A DNA stretch of 32,000 bases from the NCBI GenBank assembly GCA_035400625.1, contig DAOMZT010000004.1, forward strand, positions 35,938 to 67,937, given 5' to 3'. Made by a program: the position numbers and the translations under genes. The notes under the pieces were generated by a model. That model was not told the DNA's origin. It made no database searches and saw only the letters and a list, made by a program, of their open reading frames with translations. This document shows positions 1,199-32,000 of this stretch, piece by piece. Position 1 is the first letter of the stretch, and each line of letters begins with the position of its first letter. Origin of the DNA: an archaeon (lineage in GTDB: Archaea; Iainarchaeota; Iainarchaeia; Iainarchaeales; CSSED10-239).

Positions 1199-3076
1199 TC
1201 AGTTTCTTTTTATCTTAAAAATGCCTAATACGAAAAATAATATTATCAATAGGCAAATAAAGATTATACCAAATAATATTGAATTTCTAAGAGATAACAA
1301 ACCTAGTAGCTTTGATCTCTCTTTTTCGGGCTCTTCTGTTAGCTTAAAAAGTATTGGTTGCTCTAAGACATTTCCATTGTTTGCTACAAATCTTAATTTT
1401 GCATCAATATCTTCTTTTGGAACATCTCCGATATTAACCTTTACTGAGATTGTTTTTGTTTCTCCAGGATTTAATGTTATTACTTGATCTGCAACAATAT
1501 CTACGCCTTGAGGAACATTTGATAACTCAATATTGGTGATTGTTACTTTATTTCCTTTATTTCTTAAAGTTATATCAAATTCTTGTGAACTGTTTGGTTC
1601 AACTGTTAGTTTTTTAGGATATGATAATAATTCTATGTTTATTGTTTCTGAAACCTTAACTACATTAATTGTATATTGTAATTCTTCAGAAAAACCACTT
1701 GATTTTCCTTTTATCTTTACATTTAGAGAAGATAATCTAAGTTGTGTGAATTCTCCTGAAGAAACATATATTGTTAGATATTTGCTTGAATGTTTATCAA
1801 CATTAATCTTTTTGTTCTCAATTGTTGCCTTTAAATCGTTATTTGGTAAAAATTCTATTTCTATATCTTCAGATAAATCACCGTTATTTTTAAGTAATAT
1901 CATAATTGGAAGTGGCTTGCCAATTGTAAGATTTAGATTTGGTTCACTTAGGCTTTCTACTTTAAAACCATATTTTGGATTTACTATTAATTTCACGGTT
2001 TTTGAAATTGACTTAAGGCCGTCAAAAAAGTCTAATTTTATATTATAGGTTCCTGACCTGCAGTCTTCTGAAACATTAAATGTAAATTTAATAGTTTTAC
2101 TTTGATTAGGCTCTAATGTAAATTTACGATTAGAGATATCAACATATATTCCAGAATTAACATTATCTTCTGAAATATAAAATGTTCTGGTTGTGTTAGA
2201 AATGTTTTTCAAAGTATAAGAAAGGGTTTTACTTTGCCCTTTACTTATGTTTTGGGTGGTTGTTGCAGGTCCTGACACAGTAAAATCATTGTTTGGCTCT
2301 GGGCAATCTTCTGCATAAAGTGAAAATTCTTTTGTTACTTCTATCTTCTCATTTTTTATTCTTAAGGTTAAATCTAATTTTTCTTTATCTGTTACATTGT
2401 CTGAAACAATCACAGAATAATCTATTTCTTTTTCATCTTTTAAATATACTGGATTAGAATATTCTGAACTTATTACTAATTTTGGACTGCTTAAATAAAT
2501 GTTGTATAGTCCATCACTATAGTCGTTCTCTATATCAAGAGTTATTGTGTTTGTTCTACCGATACAAACATTTGTATTTGAGATATCTACTGAAAACTCT
2601 CCATCTTCTTCATCTTCTGTAACTTCTATATCTTGTCTAAATTGCTTTATTTCTTGATTTTCTGAATTTAGTAATTTGATATAAACTATTACTTCAGAAT
2701 GTGATTCCTCAAGAGCAGAAACATAAAAAGAACCAGTAAATTCTGAATTCTCTGGAAGAGTGTATTTCTTAGAATAATTACACTCTAACTCATCTTCTTC
2801 ACAATCTACCCAAACATGTATTTTTGCAACAAAGGAATTGTTGTTCTTAATTGTAAAACCTATCTTTGTGCTGGTGTCTTGCATTAAGGAGTAGGTTTCC
2901 TTATCAAAGACAAAGTCAATATTTTCTATTTTTGGCTCATTTGTTTCCGCAAAAACTGCTCTTGCAGTAAATACAGACAATAAAATAAATATACCAATAA
3001 TAAGATACTTTAATTTATTGTGATTTGGTTTTTTATAATATTTTTGAAAATCATTTAATTTTGTTTGCATAAACAT
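1199..3076 (-). CDS. cell-surface protein with N-terminal signal peptide, repeated beta-sandwich (CARDB/NEW3-like) modules and C-terminal TM anchor
   Basis: 625-aa ORF. N-terminal hydrophobic segment LKYLIIGIFILLSVFTARAVFA. Repeated motifs of the type EPNQSKTIKFTFNVSEDCRSGTYNIKL, NPGETKTISVKVNIG and EPNSSQEFDITLRNKG. C-terminal hydrophobic helix ILFGIIFICLLIILFFVLGIF followed by basic residues. Confidence 0.6.
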   Translation of the reverse strand: MFMQTKLNDFQKYYKKPNHNKLKYLIIGIFILLSVFTARAVFAETNEPKIENIDFVFDKETYSLMQDTSTKIGFTIKNNNSFVAKIHVWVDCEEDELECNYSKKYTLPENSEFTGSFYVSALEESHSEVIVYIKLLNSENQEIKQFRQDIEVTEDEEDGEFSVDISNTNVCIGRTNTITLDIENDYSDGLYNIYLSSPKLVISSEYSNPVYLKDEKEIDYSVIVSDNVTDKEKLDLTLRIKNEKIEVTKEFSLYAEDCPEPNNDFTVSGPATTTQNISKGQSKTLSYTLKNISNTTRTFYISEDNVNSGIYVDISNRKFTLEPNQSKTIKFTFNVSEDCRSGTYNIKLDFFDGLKSISKTVKLIVNPKYGFKVESLSEPNLNLTIGKPLPIMILLKNNGDLSEDIEIEFLPNNDLKATIENKKINVDKHSSKYLTIYVSSGEFTQLRLSSLNVKIKGKSSGFSEELQYTINVVKVSETINIELLSYPKKLTVEPNSSQEFDITLRNKGNKVTITNIELSNVPQGVDIVADQVITLNPGETKTISVKVNIGDVPKEDIDAKLRFVANNGNVLEQPILFKLTEEPEKERSKLLGLLSLRNSILFGIIFICLLIILFFVLGIFKIKRN

Positions 3077-3084
3077 TTCCTCTT

Positions 3085-3924
3085 TTATTTTCTATACACA
3101 TATTTAATATATTTTGTTGAGAAAGATAAAATTACAATTATTAAAATACCAACTAAAATTATTTGAAAGATTGTGGAATTTAAAATTGATTTTATATCTA
3201 TATTTTTTGCAAAAGAAACTAAACCAGTAACAACAGAAGTTACTTGTTTCTTGTTTTGTTCTGGTTCTTCTTTTTTTGGCAACTCTAGATCAACAAAGCC
3301 ATAAACTCCATTACATCTGTATTCTATCTTTGTTTCTCTTAAATCTGTTTTAAAAACTCTAACTATTTTTGTTTCTACATCGCTTGTAGCAATTACTACT
3401 CCTATTGGAGAATCTAAATTTACATCTTTTATACCTATTATGTTGATTTCTTGATCTTTATCACTAGAATTTTTAAAAGTTAAATCTAAACTATAGTTGT
3501 CTGTTTCTTTAACATAAACTATTGTGTGCTGTAAATCAATTGGACAAATTCTATTTGCTTTCTGGATAATTTCAAAATCTATTTTTTTAGAATTTTGTAA
3601 ATACATTAACTCAATGCTTACTTTATAGGTAGAATCCAAAACATTTTCTAGAGGAGAAATAACAAAAGTAATTTCTTTAGATTCGTTTGGGTTAAGAGTT
3701 ATTTTGTCTTCTGAGAAATAAGACTCATAAGGGGAAGTATAGGATACCAAAGAATATGTTTGTGCAGTAGAATATGGATTGTAAATATAAAGAGTAGCAG
3801 AGACAGGGGCATCAACTACTGTTACTTTTTTTGGAAAAGAAACTGTAGGGGAGTTATCTGCATAAATTAATTGCAAAGATAATAAGGTCACCATTATAAA
3901 TAAAAATACTTTTTTCTTAATCAT
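3085..3924 (-). CDS. surface/membrane-anchored protein (signal peptide plus C-terminal TM)
   Basis: 279-aa ORF. N-terminal VFLFIMVTLLSLQLIYA signal-like segment. Beta-rich body containing the motif LNPNESKEITFVISP. C-terminal helix IFQIILVGILIIVILSF. Lies 8 nt upstream of the 625-aa surface protein gene on the same strand. Confidence 0.55.
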   Translation of the reverse strand: MIKKKVFLFIMVTLLSLQLIYADNSPTVSFPKKVTVVDAPVSATLYIYNPYSTAQTYSLVSYTSPYESYFSEDKITLNPNESKEITFVISPLENVLDSTYKVSIELMYLQNSKKIDFEIIQKANRICPIDLQHTIVYVKETDNYSLDLTFKNSSDKDQEINIIGIKDVNLDSPIGVVIATSDVETKIVRVFKTDLRETKIEYRCNGVYGFVDLELPKKEEPEQNKKQVTSVVTGLVSFAKNIDIKSILNSTIFQIILVGILIIVILSFSTKYIKYVYRK

Positions 3925-20549: not shown

Positions 20550-21260
20550 TTATTGTAATATTTCATTTATTACATCCAAGCAATCTTTTACACCATTTAT
20601 GGGATTAATTACCCTGTATTTTGCGCCATTTTGACCAAGATTTGTATCATATCCTTTTTCTTCTAATGTTTTCTTAGATGCCCCTCCCACTATGTAAACA
20701 TCTAAAAAATCATATATCTTTATTTTCAAGTCTTCTGGATTATAATAATGAATAATAAATAAATAGTAGTCTTTATGTATTTCTAACTTTTTATATGACG
20801 CACTATACCAACCAATAATAGAATAAGCGCTTTTACCATTTTTAAGAGGGAACCCTATAAGTCTTCCTAAAGTAGTATAATATTTATAACAAAATGAGGA
20901 CCGCACTTCAATAGTTTTAATTATGCCATTAACAGATATAGATAAATCAGTTTGATTACCTAGAACACTATTATTGTCTTCATCAAAAGTAGAATTTAAA
21001 ATTTTTAAATCAATTTTTTTAGTCTTACTAATCTCATTTAAACAAAAATGAATTGAATGCTCAGCCAATAACCCTCCGACAATCATATTTTCTTTATGTG
21101 CTGAATTTCTTACTATTCCGTTGGGTGCTTTAGAATTAAGTTTATCTAAAAGTTGTTTTGATTTATTGATAATATTATCAATAACAAGCCTATCTATCTT
21201 ATAATTATAGCGTATTTTTATTAATTTATATTTTTCAATTTCTACTATTTCTAAATCCAT
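20550..21260 (-). CDS. hypothetical protein, possible PD-(D/E)xK-type nuclease, third gene of the R-M operon
   Basis: The ORF lies 5 nt (GTG 21293) or 38 nt (ATG 21260) downstream of the mod stop. GGLLAEHSIHF and TDLSISVNGIIKTIEVRSS could be the D...E-x-K/R core of a restriction-endonuclease fold. This is a weak, motif-level guess. Confidence 0.3.
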   Translation of the reverse strand: MDLEIVEIEKYKLIKIRYNYKIDRLVIDNIINKSKQLLDKLNSKAPNGIVRNSAHKENMIVGGLLAEHSIHFCLNEISKTKKIDLKILNSTFDEDNNSVLGNQTDLSISVNGIIKTIEVRSSFCYKYYTTLGRLIGFPLKNGKSAYSIIGWYSASYKKLEIHKDYYLFIIHYYNPEDLKIKIYDFLDVYIVGGASKKTLEEKGYDTNLGQNGAKYRVINPINGVKDCLDVINEILQ

Positions 21261-21298
21261 AATTCTCAAAACCAATAGTCTTATTAAGTGCACTTAAC

Positions 21299-23257
21299 TT
21301 AAATTTCTTTAATAATTAATACTTCTTCTCCTAACATATCAATAATTTTAACGGCAATCGTAGTTTTATTTTTTATATTAAATTCATATGTCCCAACAAT
21401 TAAATCGTTCTTTTTTTCAGGAACATCTGAATATTTTATATTAAATACCTTACCATCATAATTTGTATCAATTAACACAACATCAATCATACTTCTAAAA
21501 TCAGGGATTTTTACTTTAATCAATTTATTACTATTATTTAGTCTTTCAATGATAGTTGGAGATATAAAATCATTTATTTCTATAAATATTTTATCTCCTT
21601 TTCTTTTAATATTTATTTTAGCTTGAGCTTTTTTATGAATTAAGAATTTCCCATATTTTCCATCAGTTCTTAATTCTATAAGTTCTAACTTATTAATTGG
21701 GTGCTTTTTATTATAGTCTTCTATATATGAATCAACACTTAATTCTTTACCTAAACACACAATAGTAACATTTCTATTTTCATCAGGCCTACTTTTTAAT
21801 TCGTCCTGAATTAATTGCAAGTCCAATAAAGTTAATGGATGATTAAAATCAATCATTTTTACTAAATTCTTACCTATAGTTCCTTCAAAAAAATTATCTG
21901 TTTTAGTTCTTTGTATCCCTATATGTTGAATCGCTAATTCAACTGCTTCCGTTCTTAATAACTGTAAATCATAATCATTTACTTTATAATAAGCAAAAGC
22001 CAAATGTTCGTTTGTTTTAGAAACTATTTTTTTTTGTTTAGTTACTTCTTTTTGCGTTTTAATTATCTTTTGCAATCTTTTAGATACTGTTTGAATTGAC
22101 CCTTTATTAATATCTACGCCTATCCATCTTCTATTTAATTTTTGAGCTATTGCTTGAGTAGTGCCACTACCCATAAAACAATCTAAGACAAGTCCATCAA
22201 AATTAGTAGATGATTTTATTACTCTTTCTAAAATGTCTTCTGAATTTTCTGTAGGATACCCTGTACTATCAACTGTATAACCAGGAATATCTGTCCAGTT
22301 ACTGTTTACTGTTTGATGAGGAAATTGATAATATTCTGGCAAATTAACTCTTTTCCCAAATCGGTCTAAATATGTTCTTTTTTCATTAATTCTTATTTTT
22401 CCTTCAGCAATCAGTTTATTGATTACTTCTTGTGAAAACGTCCAATGACTATTTCTACGAGATATAAAAACTTTACCATTTATAGATATCTCAATATTCT
22501 TACTATCTCCTGGTGCTTCCAAAGGCACCCAGTCTGGTTCTTTTTCCTGTTTACAATATTTACAAATCCTGTCCGTCACTATTTTATTAAATAAATTATC
22601 ATTAGATTTTGAATAAAAATATATTGTTTCATAAGCAGTGGCAAATTGATTTTTTGTCGACCCTAAATTAGTACTTCTATTAACTGCTATTTCATTTCTA
22701 AAATTATTTTTCCCAAAGACTTCATCTAATAATATTTTTATATAATGTCCATAATGATAATCAAATCTTACAAAAATACTACCTTTTTCACTCAGTAATT
22801 CTTTTAATAATATTAATCTTTCATACATAAATTGCAAAAACGAATCATCTGCAAAATTATTAAAATACATTGTCTGTTCTTGTGACGTATAATATTCGCC
22901 ATCTAATTTTTCTAATTTAATACCTTTCAATTGAACTTTACGTATATAATCTACCCCTGTATTAAATGGAGGGTCTATATAAATTAAATCAATCTTATTT
23001 CTAAAACCATTCGCTAAAAGATAACCTAGAACTTCTTTGTTATCCCCGTGAAATATTAAATTCTGCCAATTATCTTTTAAGTTATCAAAATTAGGGTTAT
23101 CTATTGGTTTAGATTCGCCTGTTGGGTCAAATATCTCTACCAGTTGTGCAGGAAAGCTTTGTACATAATCTATTGGTCTTTTCCCCACCCATTGTAGCAT
23201 TGGTCTCCCTTTAGCCTCTGATATTTTAATTTTTTTTTCATTCATCCTTGTCACCAT
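21299..23257 (-). CDS. mod: Type III restriction-modification system methyltransferase (Mod), beta-class N6A/N4C MTase
   Basis: N-terminal LQWVGK, FHGDNKEVL and IYIDPPFNTG (motif IV) lie upstream of LDCFMGSGTTQAIAQKLNRRWIGVDIN (motif I). This is the circular permutation of beta-class MTases used by Type III Mod subunits, with a long variable region between them. Alternative ATG at 23245. Confidence 0.85.
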   Translation of the reverse strand: MVTRMNEKKIKISEAKGRPMLQWVGKRPIDYVQSFPAQLVEIFDPTGESKPIDNPNFDNLKDNWQNLIFHGDNKEVLGYLLANGFRNKIDLIYIDPPFNTGVDYIRKVQLKGIKLEKLDGEYYTSQEQTMYFNNFADDSFLQFMYERLILLKELLSEKGSIFVRFDYHYGHYIKILLDEVFGKNNFRNEIAVNRSTNLGSTKNQFATAYETIYFYSKSNDNLFNKIVTDRICKYCKQEKEPDWVPLEAPGDSKNIEISINGKVFISRRNSHWTFSQEVINKLIAEGKIRINEKRTYLDRFGKRVNLPEYYQFPHQTVNSNWTDIPGYTVDSTGYPTENSEDILERVIKSSTNFDGLVLDCFMGSGTTQAIAQKLNRRWIGVDINKGSIQTVSKRLQKIIKTQKEVTKQKKIVSKTNEHLAFAYYKVNDYDLQLLRTEAVELAIQHIGIQRTKTDNFFEGTIGKNLVKMIDFNHPLTLLDLQLIQDELKSRPDENRNVTIVCLGKELSVDSYIEDYNKKHPINKLELIELRTDGKYGKFLIHKKAQAKINIKRKGDKIFIEINDFISPTIIERLNNSNKLIKVKIPDFRSMIDVVLIDTNYDGKVFNIKYSDVPEKKNDLIVGTYEFNIKNKTTIAVKIIDMLGEEVLIIKEI

Positions 23258-25841
23258 AAACCCAATCTTTTATTTTTTTATAATTTTTAAATCCTATTTC
23301 CTCAACAGGAGTAAATAATACTTCGTATTTAAGTTTATCTGGATTTAAATTTTCTATCTTTTTAATTGCCATTTCTTTATTTTCATCTTTATAAATTTCG
23401 CCCTTAACTTCGACTATAAGAATTCTTCCATCTTTCTTTTTAATAACAAAATCAGGAGTATAATTTCTCCATTTGCCATTTTTATCTTTATATTCAAATA
23501 GGAAATCTGTTTTATTAATATCGGTTAACTGCCCAGTATAATATATATCTTCAATATTATCTGGATTTTCATTTAATGAATCTATGAGTTTAATAAAAAA
23601 ATCAGTTTCAGGATTAGAATCCATTTTATATGGCGAATAATGAAATCCAAACTCCTGTTTATTTTTATCTTTAAATTGTTTATAATATAAAAATAAATTT
23701 TCTTTATCTTTGTGATACATTATTTCTGCAGTATAAATAATTTCCCCATTTTTTTCTTCTTTATTAAAGCCTTCTTTTTTAATTAATGCTAAGTGTACTT
23801 CTATCTCTTCTTCAATAATTTTATAATTTCTTAATTGTGATTCAATTTGTTTTTTTAATTCAATAATGTGACTTGCAGGTATTTCTGAGTCATCATATAA
23901 CTTTTTCAACATATCATAAACATATCCTAAATCTAATCTGTAAATTTGGGATAAATCAATTGAAACACTATATAAATCACAAAATTCTTCTTCAATCTTA
24001 ATTTCTTCAACATTTTCTTGAACTAACACACCATTTTTATCAGTTCTATCTTTCAAAGAATATTCCTTTTTTTTCATTATTTCATATTTTATAGTGGGTT
24101 TATTTAAGATAATTTTAGAATCGCCTTCATTTTCTAAAATTATTTTTTGAACTTTTTTCTTAACCAAAATTGGTGGAATTTCGGTCTTTCTTAAAATTAA
24201 TCTTTCTTTCCTCAATTCTGGCTTTGTAATATCTAAAATTTGTAAAGATTCTCCAAAAGTTTCCTTAAGTTGATAATCTAAAATCTTTCTATTATCTTCA
24301 GATAAATAAATTCTTGCTCTTTTATTATTATTTGGAACTTGCCTTAAACACCGTGTTGCTGATTGAAGTATAAAATTATTACTACTCTTTAATTTCCTTG
24401 CTAATGCTGTTGCGAATAAAGATGGGCAGTTCCATCCTTCTGTACCCATATTAACTAATAAAAAAACTCTATACGGATTTGTAGGGTCATTTATTCTATT
24501 GTTAAACAAATCTTTAATTTTATCCTCAGATTTATTATTGACTTCTAAAACAATTGAAGAATCTAATCCCAACTCTAAAATTTTATTTACAATTATTGGT
24601 TTAATCTTTTTTACATCATCTGTTTGAGGAAAATAAATCGCAATCTTAGATTTTGCACCAGTATATATAGTTACATCTCTGTATTCTTTAAAAAAATCAT
24701 CAATTACTATATTTACAAAATCCGTTAAACTATCCGTATCATAAGAATAAATACCATCTTTTACATCTTTAAGAATTCCGTCTTTAATACCTTGAGATAA
24801 ACCATACCAAAAAACAACATCTCTTAACATCTGTTTTTTATAATAGGGAGTCCCTGTTGTATTAATTACTGCAATTACATTTGTGTTCTCTGCCAAATAA
24901 TCAACAGTTTTTCTAACTTTTTTTAATTCGTCATCTAATGATTGCCCATATGTGTGATGAGCTTCATCAGAGAAAATGGCTAAATTTGGTAAAGAGGATA
25001 TTGTTTGTAATCGTAAATTTGCAGTTTCTTGCGCTTCTTCTATCTTTTCTTTTTCTTTATAATTAAATAAACTTAATTGTGTGCTTTTTCCTGTCGATTT
25101 TTGAATCCTTATTTTTTCCGTGTTTGTTACAATTATATTATAGGAACTGCCTCTTATTATTGGAATGTCTTTTTCTTTATCTTGTGTATATGTTATTTTT
25201 ACTGAACTCATAAATTGTTTATACAATCTTAAAGGTAAAATTTTATCAAAAGGAATATCAGATATTTCTTTTAATGCTCCTAAAATAGTTTTACCTGGGG
25301 CAAAAACTAATGCGTTTTTTACAAAATCATTTTTATATTCTATTGCTAAGCTAAATTCCGTACAAATAATTGTTCCAATCAATACCGTTTTACCTGCACC
25401 CATGGCTAATGCAAAAATATAACTGGGATAATCTAATGTTAATGATTCTCTTACTGCCTCAAGTTTATTTTGTTTAACAAAAACATCATCATAACTGATT
25501 TTTTCAAATATAGAATTTAAACCGCCCTGACTCATTAATTTAATAATATCTTCTGATTTAAGATGAATCCCTAATGCCTTTAGTAATTCTACAGGGTCAT
25601 CATAAAATTTTTTATATAATTCGAAAATGTGGGGTGTTTTTTCTACAACCCTTAAATACCAATATGTTTCTAATGCTTCAAATTGTGCTCTTCTTAAATA
25701 TCTTAAATTTTTATTCCCAAATTCATCTTCATATAAATTATAATCAAATATTTCGGATAATATCGGATAATTAGACGGATAGCCTTCTTCTCTCCAATTT
25801 TTTACTCTCTCTTTTAATTTTGTTGGAATAAAAAAATCCAT
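23238..25841 (-). CDS. res: Type III restriction enzyme Res subunit (SF2 helicase plus C-terminal PD-(D/E)xK nuclease)
   Basis: Helicase motif I ALAMGAGKTVLIG, motif II IFSDEAHHTY, motif III NTTGTP and motif VI QSATRCLR. C-terminal nuclease core YTPDFVIKKKDGRILIVEVKGE. Overlaps mod by 20 nt (8 nt if mod starts at 23245). Confidence 0.85.
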   Translation of the reverse strand: MDFFIPTKLKERVKNWREEGYPSNYPILSEIFDYNLYEDEFGNKNLRYLRRAQFEALETYWYLRVVEKTPHIFELYKKFYDDPVELLKALGIHLKSEDIIKLMSQGGLNSIFEKISYDDVFVKQNKLEAVRESLTLDYPSYIFALAMGAGKTVLIGTIICTEFSLAIEYKNDFVKNALVFAPGKTILGALKEISDIPFDKILPLRLYKQFMSSVKITYTQDKEKDIPIIRGSSYNIIVTNTEKIRIQKSTGKSTQLSLFNYKEKEKIEEAQETANLRLQTISSLPNLAIFSDEAHHTYGQSLDDELKKVRKTVDYLAENTNVIAVINTTGTPYYKKQMLRDVVFWYGLSQGIKDGILKDVKDGIYSYDTDSLTDFVNIVIDDFFKEYRDVTIYTGAKSKIAIYFPQTDDVKKIKPIIVNKILELGLDSSIVLEVNNKSEDKIKDLFNNRINDPTNPYRVFLLVNMGTEGWNCPSLFATALARKLKSSNNFILQSATRCLRQVPNNNKRARIYLSEDNRKILDYQLKETFGESLQILDITKPELRKERLILRKTEIPPILVKKKVQKIILENEGDSKIILNKPTIKYEIMKKKEYSLKDRTDKNGVLVQENVEEIKIEEEFCDLYSVSIDLSQIYRLDLGYVYDMLKKLYDDSEIPASHIIELKKQIESQLRNYKIIEEEIEVHLALIKKEGFNKEEKNGEIIYTAEIMYHKDKENLFLYYKQFKDKNKQEFGFHYSPYKMDSNPETDFFIKLIDSLNENPDNIEDIYYTGQLTDINKTDFLFEYKDKNGKWRNYTPDFVIKKKDGRILIVEVKGEIYKDENKEMAIKKIENLNPDKLKYEVLFTPVEEIGFKNYKKIKDWVYGDKDE

Positions 25842-25957
25842 ATTATCACATAAAATTTATAATAATATATTATACAAATAATATAAAAACGTTGGGATTA
25901 TTTTTTTAAAAAAATAGGACATTTGCCACTCTTCATATTCTTTATCTCTTAATTGTT

Positions 25958-26554
25958 CTAAGTATTCTTTTGTTTGTTGGTTGTTTGGTATATTGTTATT
26001 TGATATATTATTTTTATTTTAATATAGATTTCTAAAGGAAGATAACAGAAATAACTATTCTTATTATGCCTTAGATAGTTCGTTGTGATTTTTACAAAAT
26101 TTCCATATTGTTGGGCCTTTAGTTTATGAATATTTGCTAGTAAATAATTACCTTCTACTTTCCTTATTCCACTCACTAAATACATTATATAAACTAGTCT
26201 ATTATTTAAGGTTAGCTGAGAAAGAGTTTGTTTGATTTCAGGGTCTGTTGGGACATAGTTATCTACTCCTGACTTATATGTTTTTATCATTTTTCTACAT
26301 TGTATTAATTGGTCAGTAGTTAATATTTCTTTCTTTTCGCAATAGTTTAAGATATGCCTAACCATCTTAATTGCTGTTTCGTCCTTGTTTATAATGTCAT
26401 AATTGTCACAAATGACATCTAATAGTTCATTATTTTTATACACACTTTTATTAAAAATTAGAGGAATTTTAGCAATTAGGTTCTTTGTATAGTTTTTAGA
26501 ATAATTTGCGTTAGATAGTGCTTCTTTCCACTCTACGAGCGAAACCACAGGCAA
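25958..26554 (-). pseudogene. tyrosine recombinase (integrase) fragment lacking the C-terminal catalytic half
   Basis: VPTDPEIKQTLSQLTLNNRLVYIMYLVSGIRKVEGNYLLANI matches the start of the integrase catalytic domain, including the box I Arg (xGxRxxE). LRHNKNSYFCYLPLEIY fits the beta-hairpin Lys region. The ORF then stops. No H-x-x-R or catalytic Tyr region is encoded in any frame in the about 115 nt before the res start. The start is TTG, with no nearby ATG. Confidence 0.4.
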
Positions 26555-26571
26555 ATCACTACTAACTGAAC

Positions 26572-26623
26572 AAGAGCTCCAGACGCGCTCTTACCTTAAA
26601 GTTAAAAGCGCACGGAATTAAGA
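26572..26623. repeat. att-like direct repeat, copy B
   Basis: Partner of copy A. The identical core AAAGTTAAAAGCGCAC is at 26598-26613. A 6-bp hairpin AAGAGC/GCTCTT lies at 26572-26592. The copy sits between the stop of ORF 26624-27535 and the integrase-like start. Confidence 0.6.
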
Positions 26624-27535
26624 TTAATATTTAAAATCATCAGACAAATAAAAAACATAAGAAACTGAAAATATAAAAATATCTTCTGAAATTTTATTAT
26701 ACAAGTCAAATAGGCTTGTTTGTTCAGTTATTTCTTTTAATTCTCCATAAAATTTAATATTAGAATAAAAATTTGCTAAATAGACATCGTCTGGTCTTAA
26801 TTTTTTAAGTTTTTCAGTTAAATCTAATAACTTCTGCGAAAATACTTTGTTTATTAATAAATTAATATTACTACAATCCTCTTGAAAACAACTATGTTCA
26901 TAATAATTTAAATGAAATCCAAATTTGTTCCTTAATTCAGTAATTATATTTAAATATAGTAACCATACGGGGTCAAGACTATTGCTTTCTTTATAATTTG
27001 AAGAATCTAAATAACTGTTAAATTCACGTAATCCTACGTTCCCCCTTTTAATTAAATCCAATATGTCAAGAATGCACTCTTTCCCGTTGCGTTCAATTTG
27101 TTTAAATTTACAATCATCTTTATTAATTATAATCTTCTTTTTTAATTCAGGGGTTGTAATTAATTGTTCTCTTTGAATATAATTCATAATTAAATTCACA
27201 CACAACATTTCAGAAATTCTTAAAATACAGTAAAAAACAGATTGTTTATTTTCTAATATGACATTTGTTTTTAATTCATTTAAAATATCTATATCTTGAA
27301 ATAAGTAAAAATAATAAGAACCCTTTATTTTTCTTTCAAAAGAATATATTTTTTTTATAATATTTATCTTATTTTTTTTAATCGTATTGCCATAAGAATA
27401 ATTATATTCCTCAAAAATATAAAAAGAATCTAAAATATTATTTATAGTCTCTTTAAATTCATTATCAATAAAAAACTGATTGCCTTCAAATTTCCATCTG
27501 TTAAATAATCCTGATTCGTCTATTTCATTGCACAT
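26624..27535 (-). CDS. hypothetical protein with HEPN-type R-x5-H motif (RNKFGFH)
   Basis: 303-aa ORF whose start lies 2 nt after the upstream stop. ITELRNKFGFH (R202, H208; nt 26912-26932) fits the HEPN Rx4-6H signature with the typical Asn after Arg. A candidate first helix ILRISEMLCVNLIMNYIQ lies about 95 aa upstream. Motif-level only. Confidence 0.4.
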   Translation of the reverse strand: MCNEIDESGLFNRWKFEGNQFFIDNEFKETINNILDSFYIFEEYNYSYGNTIKKNKINIIKKIYSFERKIKGSYYFYLFQDIDILNELKTNVILENKQSVFYCILRISEMLCVNLIMNYIQREQLITTPELKKKIIINKDDCKFKQIERNGKECILDILDLIKRGNVGLREFNSYLDSSNYKESNSLDPVWLLYLNIITELRNKFGFHLNYYEHSCFQEDCSNINLLINKVFSQKLLDLTEKLKKLRPDDVYLANFYSNIKFYGELKEITEQTSLFDLYNKISEDIFIFSVSYVFYLSDDFKY

Positions 27536-27537
27536 AA

Positions 27538-28383
27538 CTAATCGCTCTTAAGTTTTATAAACCTTTTATAATCTTTTATCAATATTTCATCAATTTCTTT
27601 TATTTCATCAAGTTTTTTAGTCAAATCCATTGTTTTATAAGTAAAATAATTTATATCTCCCCGCCTATATCGGGGATTAGAAAAATGGGGCAAAAATAAC
27701 AAATACAAGAGGATAATATTATAATTTAAATAATTAAAAAACAAGGTGTCTCTTACTAATTTATCTGAAAATACGTATTTTACTTCTTTTTTCTTTGCAG
27801 AGATATTAAACCATTTAATAAGTAATTTTTGAATAAAAATTAATTTCTGCCCCTTCGTATTTTTTTTAATTAATTTTGCAATAAATATTTCATCAGTACA
27901 TTTATCTCTAATCTTATTTAAAAATAATAATAATAATGCAGAAATTTCTTTTTCTGTGGGATTAATTGAAATGGATTTCTCATTAATTATTGATTTTATG
28001 TTTGCATCAATATTTTTATTTTCTATATCATTATAAATATTTATATATCTACTAAATAATTTAGTTTTTTTTACAAAATCATTTATTTTTACTACTGCTT
28101 TATTGTGATTTTCTAAATCTTTTGATTCAAATCTACCTGATAAAAGTAAAAAAGAATTAATTAATTTTTCGTGAAATTGTTCTAAATGATATATCCCAAA
28201 TGCAGGGTCATCTAAGTATAATTTTTTAAATGCCTCAAAATCAGCACGCGCAATTAGGAAATATTCATTTGCAGACCTTAGGTTTTCGGGAGTAATAATT
28301 ACATTCATTTCTTTAGATATTTCTTCTAAATTTCCTAAAGTGTCAAATGAATTAAAATTTAATAATTTCAATATATTCTCCAT
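27538..28383 (-). CDS. hypothetical protein, HEPN-like helical domain without recognisable Rx4-6H motif
   Basis: 281-aa ORF. ANEYFLIARADFEAFKKLYLDDPAFGIYHLEQFHEKLINSFLLLSG resembles the first helical hairpin of classical HEPN (nucleotidyltransferase-partner type) domains. The C-terminal HFSNPRYRRGD resembles their RYP region. No R-x4-6-H was found. Confidence 0.3.
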   Translation of the reverse strand: MENILKLLNFNSFDTLGNLEEISKEMNVIITPENLRSANEYFLIARADFEAFKKLYLDDPAFGIYHLEQFHEKLINSFLLLSGRFESKDLENHNKAVVKINDFVKKTKLFSRYINIYNDIENKNIDANIKSIINEKSISINPTEKEISALLLLFLNKIRDKCTDEIFIAKLIKKNTKGQKLIFIQKLLIKWFNISAKKKEVKYVFSDKLVRDTLFFNYLNYNIILLYLLFLPHFSNPRYRRGDINYFTYKTMDLTKKLDEIKEIDEILIKDYKRFIKLKSD

Positions 28384-28518
28384 TTATTCAATTTTAGGGA
28401 TATAATCATATCCTTCTTTAATTAACTTTTCTCTTGCGTGTTCTTTACAAAGATAAATCTTCTTTTCTTTCTCTGTTATGTAATACTCTGCTTTTTTAGA
28501 ACATTTTGAACACTTCAT
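28384..28518 (-). CDS. 44-aa zinc-ribbon-like mini-protein (not in the ORF track)
   Basis: Translated by hand as MKCSKCSKKAEYYITEKEKKIYLCKEHAREKLIKEGYDYIPKIE, with CxxC (C3, C6) and CxxH (C24, H27). ATG at 28516-28518. Its TAA stop (28384-28386) abuts the ATG of the next gene (28381-28383). Confidence 0.5.
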   Translation of the reverse strand: MKCSKCSKKAEYYITEKEKKIYLCKEHAREKLIKEGYDYIPKIE

Positions 28519-28549
28519 ATAAATCTTATAGAATATACATTATTAAAAC

Positions 28550-29797
28550 TTATTGATTATTTCCCTTCAATTCCAAACATTCTTCTTTATAATTACATTT
28601 CTTACACAACCAAAAATAAAATGGGAGCAATCCCTCTAAATACTTTTTATCTTTATTAAATAATAATGAAAATTGTTCTAAATCAAATACCGCCTTTTCT
28701 TTATCTGTGTTTTGTGTTATAGTTTTGATTTGCTTAGTTGATTTATCATAAAAGTCTACCAAAATTCTTTCTTTTTTAAAGAAATAACCGTATAAATTTG
28801 CCTGAGTAATTGCAAAGTTTTTATAGCAATCAATTAAATAACTATTTCCCCCAGTTTTGAATTCATATGCATAATCCTGCCCTATTCCGTCTGGAATGCC
28901 AACAACAATATAATCTCTCCATCTAAAATTCCACCTAATTTGAGGTAATTTCCTTGCAATTTTACTTTCTAAATAGTCTCCTTGTATAAGTGGGTCGCTT
29001 GATTCTATATTTTCTACACTATTGTTTGTTTCAGTAGTATTAGGATATTCATTTAATACATCAAAATACTTTAATCCGTCTCTTCTTTTTTCTATAATTG
29101 AATTAATTTGCTCAAAATCAATTAAATCTCCTACTCTTAATAACTCATCTTCATCTATTATATCTTTAATTAAATTAAACTCTATAGCCAAATTGACCCT
29201 ATCATAAAGATAACTACTAAACATTGCCAATTCCATTTTTTTGTGCTCAAAATAAGATTTTATTGGACACATATAATAACTTGCAATGTCATTAATCCCA
29301 AAAAATACCAATTTATCTTTTAATCCAAGTCTTTCTTTTTCTAAATTCATATACCTCTTTAATTCTTCTTCATCTGTAATTATTTCATTTAATTGGCGTC
29401 TCATTTTTTCTTTAACTACGATTTCCTTTTCATTAGAATATAATAACAAGCCTTTATTAGAATTTGTATCAATAGCAAAATAATCGTTAGACTTATAACT
29501 ATCCTCTAAAAAATCATAATCCCAGATTTTTGTTGAATTCTCCAAAAATATTTTTGGTTTATATGTTGATAAATTAACTAAATATCTGATTGTGTTGTCA
29601 TTAATTTCTATGGGAGTATCCAAACACAATCTATTTTTAATTTCTGTACTAAATTCATCTGTTAAAACAATCTTTTTTGCATCGGATAACGATTTTGCTT
29701 TAAACCTATATTCAATAGTGCTCAGACTACAAGGAATTCCATTCTTTGAATCTGTAAGGTGTTGATTCATTGAAATATTTATTATAAATGTAAACAT
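28550..29797 (-). CDS. Cas4/RecB-like PD-(D/E)xK nuclease with 4-Cys Fe-S cluster motif, fused to an unknown N-terminal domain
   Basis: The C-terminal half carries the full Cas4/DUF83 motif set. It comprises C177 (YYMCPIKSYF), GDYLES, D303 (VVGIPDGIG), E312-x-K314 (YAYEFKTG), Q332-x3-Y336 (QANLY), and C398-x2-C401-x5-C407 (CKKCNYKEEC). The N-terminal region of about 165 aa is unrecognised. Alternative start ATG at 29770. Confidence 0.65.
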   Translation of the reverse strand: MFTFIINISMNQHLTDSKNGIPCSLSTIEYRFKAKSLSDAKKIVLTDEFSTEIKNRLCLDTPIEINDNTIRYLVNLSTYKPKIFLENSTKIWDYDFLEDSYKSNDYFAIDTNSNKGLLLYSNEKEIVVKEKMRRQLNEIITDEEELKRYMNLEKERLGLKDKLVFFGINDIASYYMCPIKSYFEHKKMELAMFSSYLYDRVNLAIEFNLIKDIIDEDELLRVGDLIDFEQINSIIEKRRDGLKYFDVLNEYPNTTETNNSVENIESSDPLIQGDYLESKIARKLPQIRWNFRWRDYIVVGIPDGIGQDYAYEFKTGGNSYLIDCYKNFAITQANLYGYFFKKERILVDFYDKSTKQIKTITQNTDKEKAVFDLEQFSLLFNKDKKYLEGLLPFYFWLCKKCNYKEECLELKGNNQ

Positions 29798-29829
29798 TTA
29801 ATCACCAAATTATACTTCATACATAATAA

Positions 29830-30669
29830 TTATTTATAATATAAAAATGCAATTTCTTTGTGTGGTATTTTCTTTTTTAAAAGACGCATAAATAAATTAT
29901 ATGATACAACATATGTTCTTGATTTATATAATCTTTTATATATTTCAAAAATTACACAAATAGTTAAATATGCCTCTTTATACCCAAAGAATTCTGGTTT
30001 AAATTCTTCATTTTTCTTAAGTTTTTTCCCCATCGCCATAATTGTTTGAACAACTCTTTTCTGACCATTTATTTTAAAATAACCATCTCTAAAACCCACA
30101 CTTTGAAGATATTTACATAATCCTTCTTTTCTTGTTTTTAGATTAGTATGAATATATGAATTTCTAACATTAACAAAAGTTAAAAGCACATCTTTAATTG
30201 GCTCTAATTCTGGGATTTTTACAAATAAGTCAATTTTTTTGTATTTTGGTTTGGTTTCATCAACTAAATCTCCCAAACTATATTTTCCGCTATAAAATAC
30301 CTCTTCTATTAATATCTCATTATTAGAATCTCGCCTACACAATTCATATTTAATTAAATATTCTATAAATATTCCTGTTAAAGATATTAATCCTGCGTGA
30401 TTAATTGTTTCAGTATTATAATCTGAAATAATTTCAGAATAAAGGTGTTCTATTTCTTCAGCTACATCATACCATTCTTTGTATTTTGATTTAGAAACAT
30501 AATAATCTAATGGGGTTACTTTTTTCGCTAAAGGAATTTTAATATAAGAATATAATTCTTCCGAATCTATAATTTCAACAGGATATGAACCTGGTTCTTT
30601 AACACTAAATATGTATTTTTGATACAAGGTGCCAGTTAAATCAGGACGTACATTTATTTTGTTTGTCAT
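29830..30669 (-). CDS. hypothetical protein with canonical HEPN R-N-x3-H motif (RNSYIH)
   Basis: 279-aa ORF starting 1 nt after the upstream stop. VNVRNSYIHT (R169, H174; nt 30148-30165) lies about 70 aa after a candidate helix GLISLTGIFIEYLIKYEL. Motif-level only. Confidence 0.45.
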   Translation of the reverse strand: MTNKINVRPDLTGTLYQKYIFSVKEPGSYPVEIIDSEELYSYIKIPLAKKVTPLDYYVSKSKYKEWYDVAEEIEHLYSEIISDYNTETINHAGLISLTGIFIEYLIKYELCRRDSNNEILIEEVFYSGKYSLGDLVDETKPKYKKIDLFVKIPELEPIKDVLLTFVNVRNSYIHTNLKTRKEGLCKYLQSVGFRDGYFKINGQKRVVQTIMAMGKKLKKNEEFKPEFFGYKEAYLTICVIFEIYKRLYKSRTYVVSYNLFMRLLKKKIPHKEIAFLYYK

Positions 30670-30670
30670 A

Positions 30671-31456
30671 TTAAAACTTTGTAATAACTTTTTTTAATTT
30701 TTTATTATTAACAACTTCGTCATATATTTTATCTTCGAAACAATGAACCATTGTATTCCTTACAGATACAATCTTAAGTTCTTTAGATACTTTATTTATG
30801 CATAATAAACGTTGTAGTTCTAAAATATCTGTATCAGATACGTTCGCCCACGGATTTAATATTAATTCTACAAATTCATTATGTAAAAATGTAATAACTC
30901 CCCACATTTCAGGCATATGATTTATAGAAATTTCATAATTAAATTTAGGAATGTCTTTTACATCCACTCCTTTTTTACTAAATGCAAACTTTGTTTGATG
31001 AAATAACCCGTACACTATCCCTTCAAAATTCACAGAAAAATATTCTTTAATTATACTTGGATTTAATACTTTATTTCCAAAATAATAATTGTGATTCACA
31101 TCCGAAAATAAGAACCCATCTTTATCTAAATTAATAATTAGAATTTTATTTGGGTTTCCTTTAAATTGAATTATATATTTTTTTATGGTAATAAATACCA
31201 AATAGTCATTATCAATAGCCACAGACCCATTAATCTTAAATTTATTAACCAATTCGCGGTCATTTTCTTCTGGGCTCCATACTTCAAAAAGATATGCTTT
31301 ATTCTTATTATTTATTTTTACATCAAATAAATTAGATTCTTTAGACCCTCTAAAATCTTGGGGATATATCACATCATAATCTGTGTTTTTCACTTTTTCT
31401 TCTATTAACTTAAACACATTGGTTTGCCCTTCATCTCCAGAATTGTTCCCCCCCAT
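30671..31456 (-). CDS. hypothetical protein (orphan)
   Basis: 261-aa ORF with an ATG start 4 nt after the stop of the Res-like gene. No confident motif. A weak D...E-x-W pattern (FDVKINNKNKAYLFEVWS) is not enough to call a nuclease. Confidence 0.45.
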   Translation of the reverse strand: MGGNNSGDEGQTNVFKLIEEKVKNTDYDVIYPQDFRGSKESNLFDVKINNKNKAYLFEVWSPEENDRELVNKFKINGSVAIDNDYLVFITIKKYIIQFKGNPNKILIINLDKDGFLFSDVNHNYYFGNKVLNPSIIKEYFSVNFEGIVYGLFHQTKFAFSKKGVDVKDIPKFNYEISINHMPEMWGVITFLHNEFVELILNPWANVSDTDILELQRLLCINKVSKELKIVSVRNTMVHCFEDKIYDEVVNNKKLKKVITKF

Positions 31457-31460
31457 AATC

Positions 31461-32000
31461 TCACAAATAATCTCCTAATGTACCTTTGATTCTTGCTTTT
31501 GTCATTATTGCATATTCTAATAATTCTTTTGTATTTGCTCCGTTTTTAGTTAATGACCCAAAAGTTTCTTCTCCAAGTAATGCGTATTTCCATTCTGCAT
31601 TCATTCTATCTTCTGGTTTTAATTGATTTATTTTATCAATTGTATCAAATGTAGCAATTCTTTTTTGAGTTACATCTATATTATCTAAATCTCTTTCTGC
31701 TTTTGTTTCTACAATATATACAGAGTCTTTAATTTTTACTATAAAATCAGGATAATAGTGTGCAAGTAACCCGTCACTTCTAATGTATTTTATTCCTGCA
31801 AAATCATTATAATTTTCATCAATTTTAATAAACGCATTTACCTCTGAATCTCTATCTATAAATTCTATAAATCTCTTTTCAAATCCCCCTTTATTAGATG
31901 GATATTTTGTTTTTGGATAAATACATTTTGCAACATCTAATGAAAATGAAGACCTAATCTTTAATTCAGGAATCTCTGAAAAATATCTTTTATTTACTTC
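31461..32000 (-). CDS. C-terminal nuclease domain of a second Type III Res-like helicase-nuclease (5' end outside window; not in the ORF track)
   Basis: Hand translation from nt 32000 downward gives 179 codons without a stop. It includes GGFEKRFIEFIDRDSEVNAFIKI, YYPDFIVKIKDSVYIVETKAE (nt about 31701-31751) and AEWKYALLGEETF. The layout matches the C-terminus of the complete Res at 23238-25841 (YTPDFVIKKKDGRILIVEVKGE). Stop TGA at 31461-31463. Confidence 0.6.
   Translation of the reverse strand, partial: EVNKRYFSEIPELKIRSSFSLDVAKCIYPKTKYPSNKGGFEKRFIEFIDRDSEVNAFIKIDENYNDFAGIKYIRSDGLLAHYYPDFIVKIKDSVYIVETKAERDLDNIDVTQKRIATFDTIDKINQLKPEDRMNAEWKYALLGEETFGSLTKNGANTKELLEYAIMTKARIKGTLGDYL

Follow-up and report, generated by a model that had tools for sequence, protein, structure and literature searches.

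A Type III restriction-modification element at a tRNA-Thr(GGU) gene of a DPANN archaeon and its variable set of predicted nuclease genes

The block, its element and the element variants

The window analysed here is a 32,000-nucleotide (nt) stretch of contig DAOMZT010000004.1 from a Diapherotrites/Iainarchaeota archaeon of the DPANN group. Our subject is a block of six complete open reading frames (ORFs) in this window, together with the C-terminal part of a restriction subunit (Res975) whose frame runs over the window edge (Table 1). A sequence-only reading of this DNA had proposed that these seven genes, among them a Res-like helicase-nuclease, a Cas4-like nuclease and several proteins with HEPN motifs, make up one undescribed defence system. 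The ORFs, their strand and the gaps between them (4, 1, 32, 31, 0 and 2 nt) were all confirmed, as were the strings RNSYIH at residues 169-174 of the 279-amino-acid (aa) protein and RNKFGFH at residues 202-208 of the 303-aa protein. The lower G+C content of the block (0.244 vs 0.299 in the core part of the window) and the adjoining Type III-like restriction-modification (R-M) genes (Res of 867 aa, Mod of 652 aa), with a 198-aa integrase fragment, were likewise as described. Nothing resembling a CRISPR array was present in the window, in agreement with the same reading, or in the extended contig described below, and the window contained no tRNA or Rfam family.

Table 1. Coordinates of the block and of adjoining features in the window
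Feature	Position	Strand	Remarks
303-aa ORF	26624-27535	minus	complete
281-aa ORF	27538-28383	minus	complete
44-aa ORF	28384-28518	minus	complete
415-aa ORF	28550-29797	minus	complete
279-aa ORF	29830-30669	minus	complete
261-aa ORF	30671-31456	minus	complete
Res975, C-terminal 179 aa	31461-32000	minus	open frame to window edge; PADLOC REase_III 5.4e-7 on fragment
40-nt att-like repeat	26575-26614	minus	right element end; directly after 303-aa gene
Type III-like R-M (Res 867 aa, Mod 652 aa, 247-aa companion)	20550-25841	minus	Pfam ResIII, N6_N4_Mtase
198-aa truncated integrase ORF	25958-26554	minus	PHROG integrase 1.7e-12; Pfam Phage_integr_3 3.6e-4

As read from the sequence, the spacers suggest two transcription units. 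The first would comprise Mod-Res-261-279-415, in which gene starts overlap or are preceded by a Shine-Dalgarno sequence, and the second 44-281-303, which lies behind an AT-rich, conserved, promoter-like spacer. The ratio of non-synonymous to synonymous substitution rates (dN/dS) was determined for the genes with orthologues, i.e. those of the 279-, 415- and 44-aa proteins (the 261-, 281- and 303-aa genes had no orthologue), and was 0.02-0.23, the same range as in Res and Mod. These three genes are thus under purifying selection and are real genes. Apart from R-M, no named multi-gene system of PADLOC-DB v2 was found, the matches being REase_III, MTase_III and a weak Cas4. Scans with Pfam, PADLOC, NCBIfam and PHROG gave no match for the 261-, 279- and 303-aa proteins or for the 281-aa protein taken alone, which reached no Pfam threshold.

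The extended context (L007) was read from a 232-kb contig of GCA_029563035.1, which matched the window by exact-sequence look-up. The names borne by identical or nearly identical proteins, Candidatus Diapherotrites or 'Ca. ainarchaeum', indicate a DPANN archaeon, with one copy probably mis-binned as Methanoculleus. The extension, which the sequence-only reading had itself suggested, recovered the full Res975, its methyltransferase Mod650, an integrase and a tRNA-Thr gene. Mod650 (L007 5116-7068, outside the window) matched PADLOC MTase_III (1.9e-75 over residues 62-647) and Pfam N6_N4_Mtase (2e-41), and full-length Res975 matched PADLOC REase_III (3.8e-28), Pfam ResIII (2.3e-14) and Helicase_C. 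The match of Res975 to RE_endonuc was weak and failed the Pfam cut-off both with the full protein (E 0.054) and with the part inside the window (8e-4). In L007, res starts where mod stops, with no gap between them. An N6/N4 methyltransferase Mod beside a superfamily 2 (SF2) helicase-like Res with a C-terminal PD-(D/E)XK domain is what defines a Type III system, and the predicted products Mod650 and Res975 make up a complete Type III R-M system, the main payload of the element. The helicase-nuclease at the window edge, which had been counted as a part of the new system, is the Res of this R-M system with a Mod of its own. The earlier statement that no methyltransferase is visible holds inside the window, but the Type III Mod lies directly upstream of Res975, just past the edge.

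Upstream of Mod650 lie four genes without a family match, a 394-aa tyrosine integrase and, abutting the integrase, tRNA-Thr(GGU) (L007 614-687). At the other end, the 303-aa gene is the last gene and is followed by an att-like 40-nt repeat, CGTGCGCTTTTAACTTTTGGGTAAGAGCGCGTCTGGAGCT, which closes each inserted segment. The last 8 nt of the repeat, CTGGAGCT, are identical to the 3' end of tRNA-Thr(GGU), and a 16-nt inverted copy (AAAAGTTAAAAGCGCA) is found just past the tRNA at the left end (L007 614-760). The same 40-mer stands at the end of a related element in L013 (3855-3903) and occurs three times in L019 (12479, 13896 and 16076), each time after an inserted gene set. Since the tRNA, the integrase, Mod and Res lie upstream of the block and the att-like repeat follows the 303-aa gene, the block is the distal cargo of a ~14-kb integrative element at tRNA-Thr(GGU). 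The interval between this tRNA and the phosphoglucomutase gene is an insertion hotspot. Two other descriptions of the ends were considered and dropped. An SSV-type split integrase does not apply, the intact integrase being a tRNA-adjacent tyrosine recombinase, and an exact repeat of the tRNA 3' half does not serve as att, as 8 nt are common with the tRNA and the longer 40-nt repeat is element-specific. The repeat copies of L019 also flank extra cargo, namely a radical-SAM gene and a PADLOC PDC-S01 gene (AAA_14/DUF4143), the latter marking the locus as a defence hotspot.

Four variants of the element were compared, all from closely related populations in anaerobic-digester-type metagenomes. The gene order is Mod-Res975-261-279-415-44-281-303 in the window and L007, Mod-153-Res975-121-278-416-46-64 in L013 and L027, and Mod-195-Res975-115-276-43-110-120-240 in L019-22, each followed by the att repeat, and Res868-Mod652-236-44like-126 in L028. 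The 279-aa protein is the only downstream gene product that accompanies Res975 in every variant with Res975 (L007, L010, L013/L027 and L019-22), while the 44-aa protein is present in all four, including L028 with its other R-M type. The 415-aa gene is cleanly missing in L019, where the homologues of the 279- and 44-aa genes are adjacent and the spacer before the latter is kept. The slot of the 261-aa gene, directly after Res, is taken in two variants by an unrelated protein of 115-121 aa, and the 281- and 303-aa genes are found, among the four variants, in the window version only. Between the window and L027, the synonymous divergence (dS) is 0.06 for Res975 but reaches 0.45 and 0.41 in the genes of the 279- and 44-aa proteins, and therefore a recombination breakpoint is placed at the 3' end of Res. 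Genes of the block have thus been swapped, lost and replaced independently across the four variants, which runs against the proposal of one seven-gene system. In the variants without the 281- and 303-aa genes, the 44-aa gene is followed by a gene for a small hydrophobic protein, probably a membrane protein (64 aa in L013/L027; 110 aa in L019, 10991-11323). A further Rx4H string, RTNLEH, occurs in the 240-aa protein at the end of the L019 variant.

Protein families of the block

A full HMMER search of 1.84 billion proteins placed the 281-aa protein in a family of 18 cluster representatives, 14 of which match the HEPN family PF05168 of Pfam (best 1e-10). A comparison of the family profile with the HEPN structures 1wol and 1o3u gave weak matches (E ~0.1). 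The HEPN domain is split by a ~130-aa insertion, and the invariant residues of the family are D48, Y65, Q69, E72, K73, H233, R238, Y239 and Y249. The sequence-only reading had called this protein HEPN-like without catalytic residues; the first part is borne out by the family, but the second is doubtful. The protein has no Rx4-6H string and possesses instead an invariant H233-x4-R238-Y239, which resembles the alternative site of AbiV/AF0298, so that it is unsafe to regard it as lacking catalytic residues. In HEPN domains of the AbiV/AF0298 type, a histidine before the arginine has been described as an alternative active site (PMC3710099). A HEPN-MNT pair would have an adjacent minimal nucleotidyltransferase (MNT) gene, but Pfam gave no nucleotidyltransferase family match in the neighbouring 44- or 303-aa proteins.

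The 281-aa family recurs beside R-M genes in four contexts, which are the window element, L064, L036 and L066. L064 (1-8828, JGI 3300028603, G+C 0.21) carries a UvrD-helicase/PDDEXK_1 fusion, a 1047-aa Mod and a 1056-aa Res, followed directly by a 275-aa homologue with 66% identity to the 281-aa protein; the Type III R-M system there is unrelated to that of the window. In L036 (2405-7803, Archaeon HR04, BEHG01000026.1), an N6_N4 methylase and an EcoRII-C-like endonuclease (Type II R-M) occur with a 281-family HEPN gene, a 415-family nuclease and an NYN-domain RNase, the HEPN gene lying on the opposite strand between the methylase/endonuclease pair and the nuclease. A further family member stands behind the end of a methyltransferase gene in L066, and another is alone on a short contig (L023). 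The 18-sequence alignment was too divergent for a scan of the sequence collections, and a profile of a 4-sequence subset found no match in GTDB genomes and one stand-alone locus in metagenomes.

For the 415-aa protein, ~90 homologues of ~300 aa were obtained, which align only to its C-terminal 60-69% (residues ~142-412); the N-terminal ~140 aa were found only in the closest relative. The complete Cas4-like motif set that the sequence-only reading had noticed is present (C177, D303, E312-x-K314, Q332/Y336 and C398-x2-C401-x5-C407), and these residues are invariant or at least 90% conserved in an alignment of 24 sequences. Matches to Cas4 profiles were weak (PADLOC E 1e-3; TIGR00372 16.8 bits vs a cut-off of 65; no Pfam match), and those to Exo5 profiles were also weak and well below the curated cut-offs. 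Because its scores lie below the curated Cas4 family cut-offs, we classify the protein as a predicted solo Cas4-like Fe-S PD-(D/E)XK nuclease (PF12705-like) and not as a Cas4 equivalog. No CRISPR array or cas gene was seen around it in the window or the extended contig. The neighbours of the family in 37 other loci from diverse archaea and bacteria were BREX genes, methylases, PIN, Cas1 and housekeeping genes, and no neighbour was conserved among these loci. The co-occurrence of the families elsewhere that one system would imply was not found, as relatives of the 261-, 279-, 303- and 44-aa proteins were absent from all 37 loci, and so was any Type III R-M system like that of the window. The 415-aa gene is a facultative cassette of the element.

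The 44-aa protein has a CxxC...CxxH pattern and zinc-ribbon matches below the Pfam threshold. With 93-100% amino-acid identity across all four variants, L028 included, and a dN/dS of 0.02-0.22, it is more constrained than any other protein of the element. Its gene opens the second unit, with an upstream spacer that is conserved in L019 in the absence of the 415-aa gene. The gene belongs to the backbone of the element family, and its product is probably a small regulator.

The remaining three proteins share a motif. Besides the two strings already mentioned, the 261-aa protein, which had been described as an orphan, has RNTMVH at residues 233-238, overlooked before. RNx3-4H thus occurs in 3 of the 6 block proteins vs 0 of the 24 other proteins of the window. 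In shuffled block proteins, three or more with RNx3-4H arose in 1 of 20,000 trials (P = 5e-5), for a pattern that was picked after the data had been seen. On this basis, the 261-, 279- and 303-aa proteins represent three candidate HEPN families of high divergence, and the 279-aa protein is a candidate HEPN-type RNase.

For the 279-aa protein, a search of 5.8 billion proteins gave only three relatives (99, 87 and 82% identity), all from sister elements. RNSYIH is invariant in all four sequences of this family, which are 80-99% identical, so that the invariance is weakly informative; the dN/dS of the gene was 0.16-0.20. The AlphaFold model had a pLDDT of 56, with only residues 91-174 moderately confident. 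In Foldseek, the best E value was 0.68, the HEPN entries 1wwp and 8xdj appeared only at a TM score of 0.46 and a probability of 0.25-0.30, and this low-confidence model had no significant match in PDB or BFVD.

The 303-aa protein has no relative beyond near-identical copies (none below 90% identity) and no family or PDB match, and its single-sequence AlphaFold model (pLDDT 34) was unusable. It showed no similarity to the terminal 240-aa protein of L019. An assignment as an MNT-like nucleotidyltransferase, considered on account of a GS-x7-DID string, was dropped for wrong spacing and want of profile support. In the metagenome contig L005 (3290-3935), the match to the window 303-aa gene ends after nucleotide 489 and unrelated sequence follows, so that the product has 163 aa; an additional recombinant variant or an assembly chimera could account for this.

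The 261-aa protein had no match in profile libraries, PDB or IMG/VR and stands alone in its 90% cluster. An identical protein is deposited as WP_292561019.1 from 'Methanoculleus sp.', whereas the core genes of the contig bear the labels archaeon or Diapherotrites, which suggests a mis-binned DPANN contig in a methanogen metagenome-assembled genome, or a symbiont and its host in the same digesters. By hhalign, the 279-family alignment was compared with that of the 281 family, and each of the two with the 261-aa and the 303-aa protein; within these pairings, no relation beyond a 13-column motif match was revealed. Single-sequence searches of PDB returned noise only (SnoaL, DASH/DUO1).

Interpretation of the locus

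With a probability of about 0.6, we read the locus as an integrative R-M element of a DPANN archaeon that carries a stack of separately exchangeable accessory nuclease modules as its distal cargo, and not as one obligate machine. R-M would cut unmodified incoming DNA as the first line of defence. The RNxxxH proteins and the 281-aa protein would be latent HEPN-type RNases, second-line effectors that might be released when restriction fails or is inhibited and then shut down translation, with abortive infection or addiction to the element as the outcome. Of the accessories, the 279-aa protein would be the likeliest functional partner of Res975. The Cas4-like 415-aa nuclease may process or degrade DNA ends, and the 44-aa protein may act as the regulator. 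An R-M front end with a HEPN RNase back-up, which the sequence-only reading had also envisaged, is the published PrrC-type paradigm (PMC3710099).

Four points weigh against this interpretation. The HEPN status of the 279-, 303- and 261-aa proteins comes from a short motif, with no profile match and poor structural models, and the RNase or nuclease activity of the block proteins is predicted. The constant company of the 279-aa protein and Res975 reflects few independent events, since the variants come from closely related digester-type populations. Finally, genes so closely packed, and by appearance translationally coupled, would likewise suit a complex whose parts function together in this variant.

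The accessory genes might instead serve the mobile element itself, as addiction toxins, regulators, or recombination or anti-defence functions for its stability or spread. The block does lie inside an integrase-bounded element with att repeats, and the 44-aa gene belongs to its backbone and is strictly conserved. Mobile genetic elements often carry Cas4-family genes (PMC5704561), and Cas4-like nucleases encoded by such elements are known. HEPN proteins are classic toxins of toxin-antitoxin modules (PMC3710099). However, Pfam revealed no MNT antitoxin-like partner, no replication, partition or transfer gene was recognised among the backbone genes, and the accessory genes vary between otherwise conserved elements, which fits defence cargo better than core maintenance. 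We consider a purely element-serving role unlikely, although it is only partly distinct from an R-M element with accessory nucleases because addiction and abortive-infection roles overlap.

R-M, a Cas4-family nuclease and a 281-type HEPN protein are found together in three unrelated loci, i.e. the window element, L064 and L036. It is conceivable, though rather improbable, that they constitute a recurrent, unnamed three-part module, extended here by three new HEPN families (261, 279 and 303 aa) that might pair with each other or with Res for an R-M-gated RNase response in DPANN archaea.

We hold it very unlikely that Res and the six downstream genes are one new multi-component defence system in which every part is needed and several HEPN RNases and a Cas4-like nuclease receive a signal from a helicase-nuclease that senses DNA. 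The co-oriented genes with gaps of 0-4 nt in two sub-blocks would suit such a system, as would three RNx3-4H proteins and one PF05168 HEPN protein in one block. HEPN domains are generally known to act as dimers, so that paralogue-like partners could pair (PMC3710099), and the recurrence of the triad in L064 and L036 points the same way. Yet Res975 has its own Mod, with both subunits matching Type III R-M models. Each of the 415-, 261-, 281- and 303-aa genes is missing from sister elements or has another gene in its place there, while Res and the 279-aa gene remain intact and evolve under purifying selection. The 44-aa gene also accompanies a different R-M cassette. The 415-aa family has no conserved partner in its 37 other loci, the only relatives of the 303-aa protein are near-identical copies, and the 261-aa protein has none in profile libraries, PDB or IMG/VR.

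That the block consists of proviral structural or morion-type genes without a nuclease role, their RxnH motifs being coincidental, is scarcely credible: the element does have an integrase and many proteins without a family match, and archaeal viruses are generally known to be rich in orphans, but IMG/VR scans were empty for the 261-, 279- and 303-aa proteins and the 415-aa family, PHROG matches were limited to integrases and a weak Cas4, the 279-aa model had no structural match in BFVD, no capsid, portal or terminase gene was recognised, and the motif enrichment is unlikely by chance.

An R-M element with exchangeable accessory nucleases has close precedents. Links to R-M systems have been described for at least 16 HEPN clades, for which a PrrC model has been proposed (Anantharaman et al. 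2013, PMC3710099). As in PrrC/EcoprrI, the HEPN-type genes here form part of an R-M operon on a mobile segment or follow it directly, the RNxxxH strings of the block have a polar residue after the arginine, which is typical of catalytic HEPN domains, and the 281-aa family is found next to R-M genes in its four contexts. Unlike PrrC and RloC, the six block proteins have no match to an ABC or Rad50-like ATPase domain. The R-M system of the window is of Type III, whereas EcoprrI is of Type Ic, and in place of the one HEPN protein of PrrC there are up to four separate small HEPN-type proteins, three of which match no HEPN profile. The published links between R-M and HEPN come mainly from bacteria, and the present host is a DPANN archaeon.

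The 281-aa family resembles the PF05168 proteins of the TM0613 (1wol) type in the A..D...Y..QQ..EK..K pattern of its N-terminal helices and in a C-terminal RYP motif, and AbiV/AF0298 in the invariant histidine four residues before the arginine (PMC3710099). It differs from PF05168 proteins in that the insertion that splits the domain is helical and in having no MNT partner gene.

Hudaiberdiev et al. 2017 (PMC5704561) reported solo Cas4 genes as neighbours of R-M genes in genomes of the DPANN group, and UvrD-Cas4 fusions near Type III Mod/Res genes; that paper makes no mention of HEPN partners. The 415-aa protein agrees with these solo genes as a predicted Cas4-like Fe-S PD-(D/E)XK nuclease outside CRISPR, in a DPANN genome and beside a Type III R-M system, and differs from them in its unique ~140-aa N-terminal domain and the lack of a helicase fusion. 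L064 shows the published UvrD-PDDEXK-Mod-Res order with a 281-type HEPN gene added. With the mobile, integrase-linked R-M gene complexes of Furuta et al. 2010 (PMC2853133), the present locus has in common the association of R-M with an integrase-bearing segment, tandem insertions and recombination between related elements, and it differs from them in its DPANN host, in two alternative Type III cassettes behind one backbone and in a nuclease-rich variable tail.

The locus alone reveals no new defence principle, the stacking of second-line nuclease modules on R-M being already known. The sequence-only reading was right on the defence context, on the Cas4-like nuclease and on at least one true HEPN relative, and overstated the novelty and the unity of the block. 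What the locus offers is a small element that targets a tRNA gene and brings in alternative Type III R-M cassettes along with probable nucleases that can be swapped. Concrete candidates from it are three HEPN-motif orphans, a split PF05168 HEPN family that tracks R-M genes and a Cas4-like nuclease whose N-terminal domain is new. If the HEPN assignments are true, new and very divergent families would join the R-M-linked second-line repertoire, and a mainly bacterial principle would extend to DPANN archaea. As these archaea have tiny genomes, mostly without CRISPR, their resistance to viruses and plasmids is, to our knowledge, poorly known.

The adjoining decayed element

The second Type III-like R-M cassette and the integrase fragment of the window (Table 1) belong to the same element family. 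The integrase fragment runs at its 3' end into a ~105-nt copy (25876-25977) of the stretch in front of Mod650; the second copy of this direct repeat (D1, D12; 93-95% identity) is at L007 4993-5101, outside the window. The repeat consists of the 3' end of a 382-aa backbone gene and a spacer, and it lies immediately upstream of both R-M cassettes. It may be a recombination point for the swapping of R-M payloads, or just a shared promoter region. In L028, the 271- and 382-aa backbone genes (96-97% identity) are directly followed by Res868-Mod652-236, which is 94-97% identical to the Res867-Mod652-247 cassette of the window. Given the ~105-nt repeat junction and this intact counterpart, the second set of genes is a decayed element of the same family; the locus thus holds two elements in tandem, one intact and the other decayed by deletion. 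A relationship of the 198-aa ORF to the 382-aa backbone protein was considered and dropped, as the common part is the last ~56 nt, in another reading frame.

The 247-aa protein (20550-21293, minus strand), directly downstream of Res867-Mod652, is kept in the L028 cassette with 95% identity. It contains RNSAH (R-x3-H), one residue short of the HEPN motif, and its sole family match is a weak one to PHROG 16175 (E 0.004); it may be an accessory partner of the second R-M system. At 1199-3924 (minus strand), adjacent genes code for proteins of 625 and 279 aa, each with an N-terminal hydrophobic segment and a C-terminal membrane anchor, which are probably cell-surface proteins unrelated to the block.

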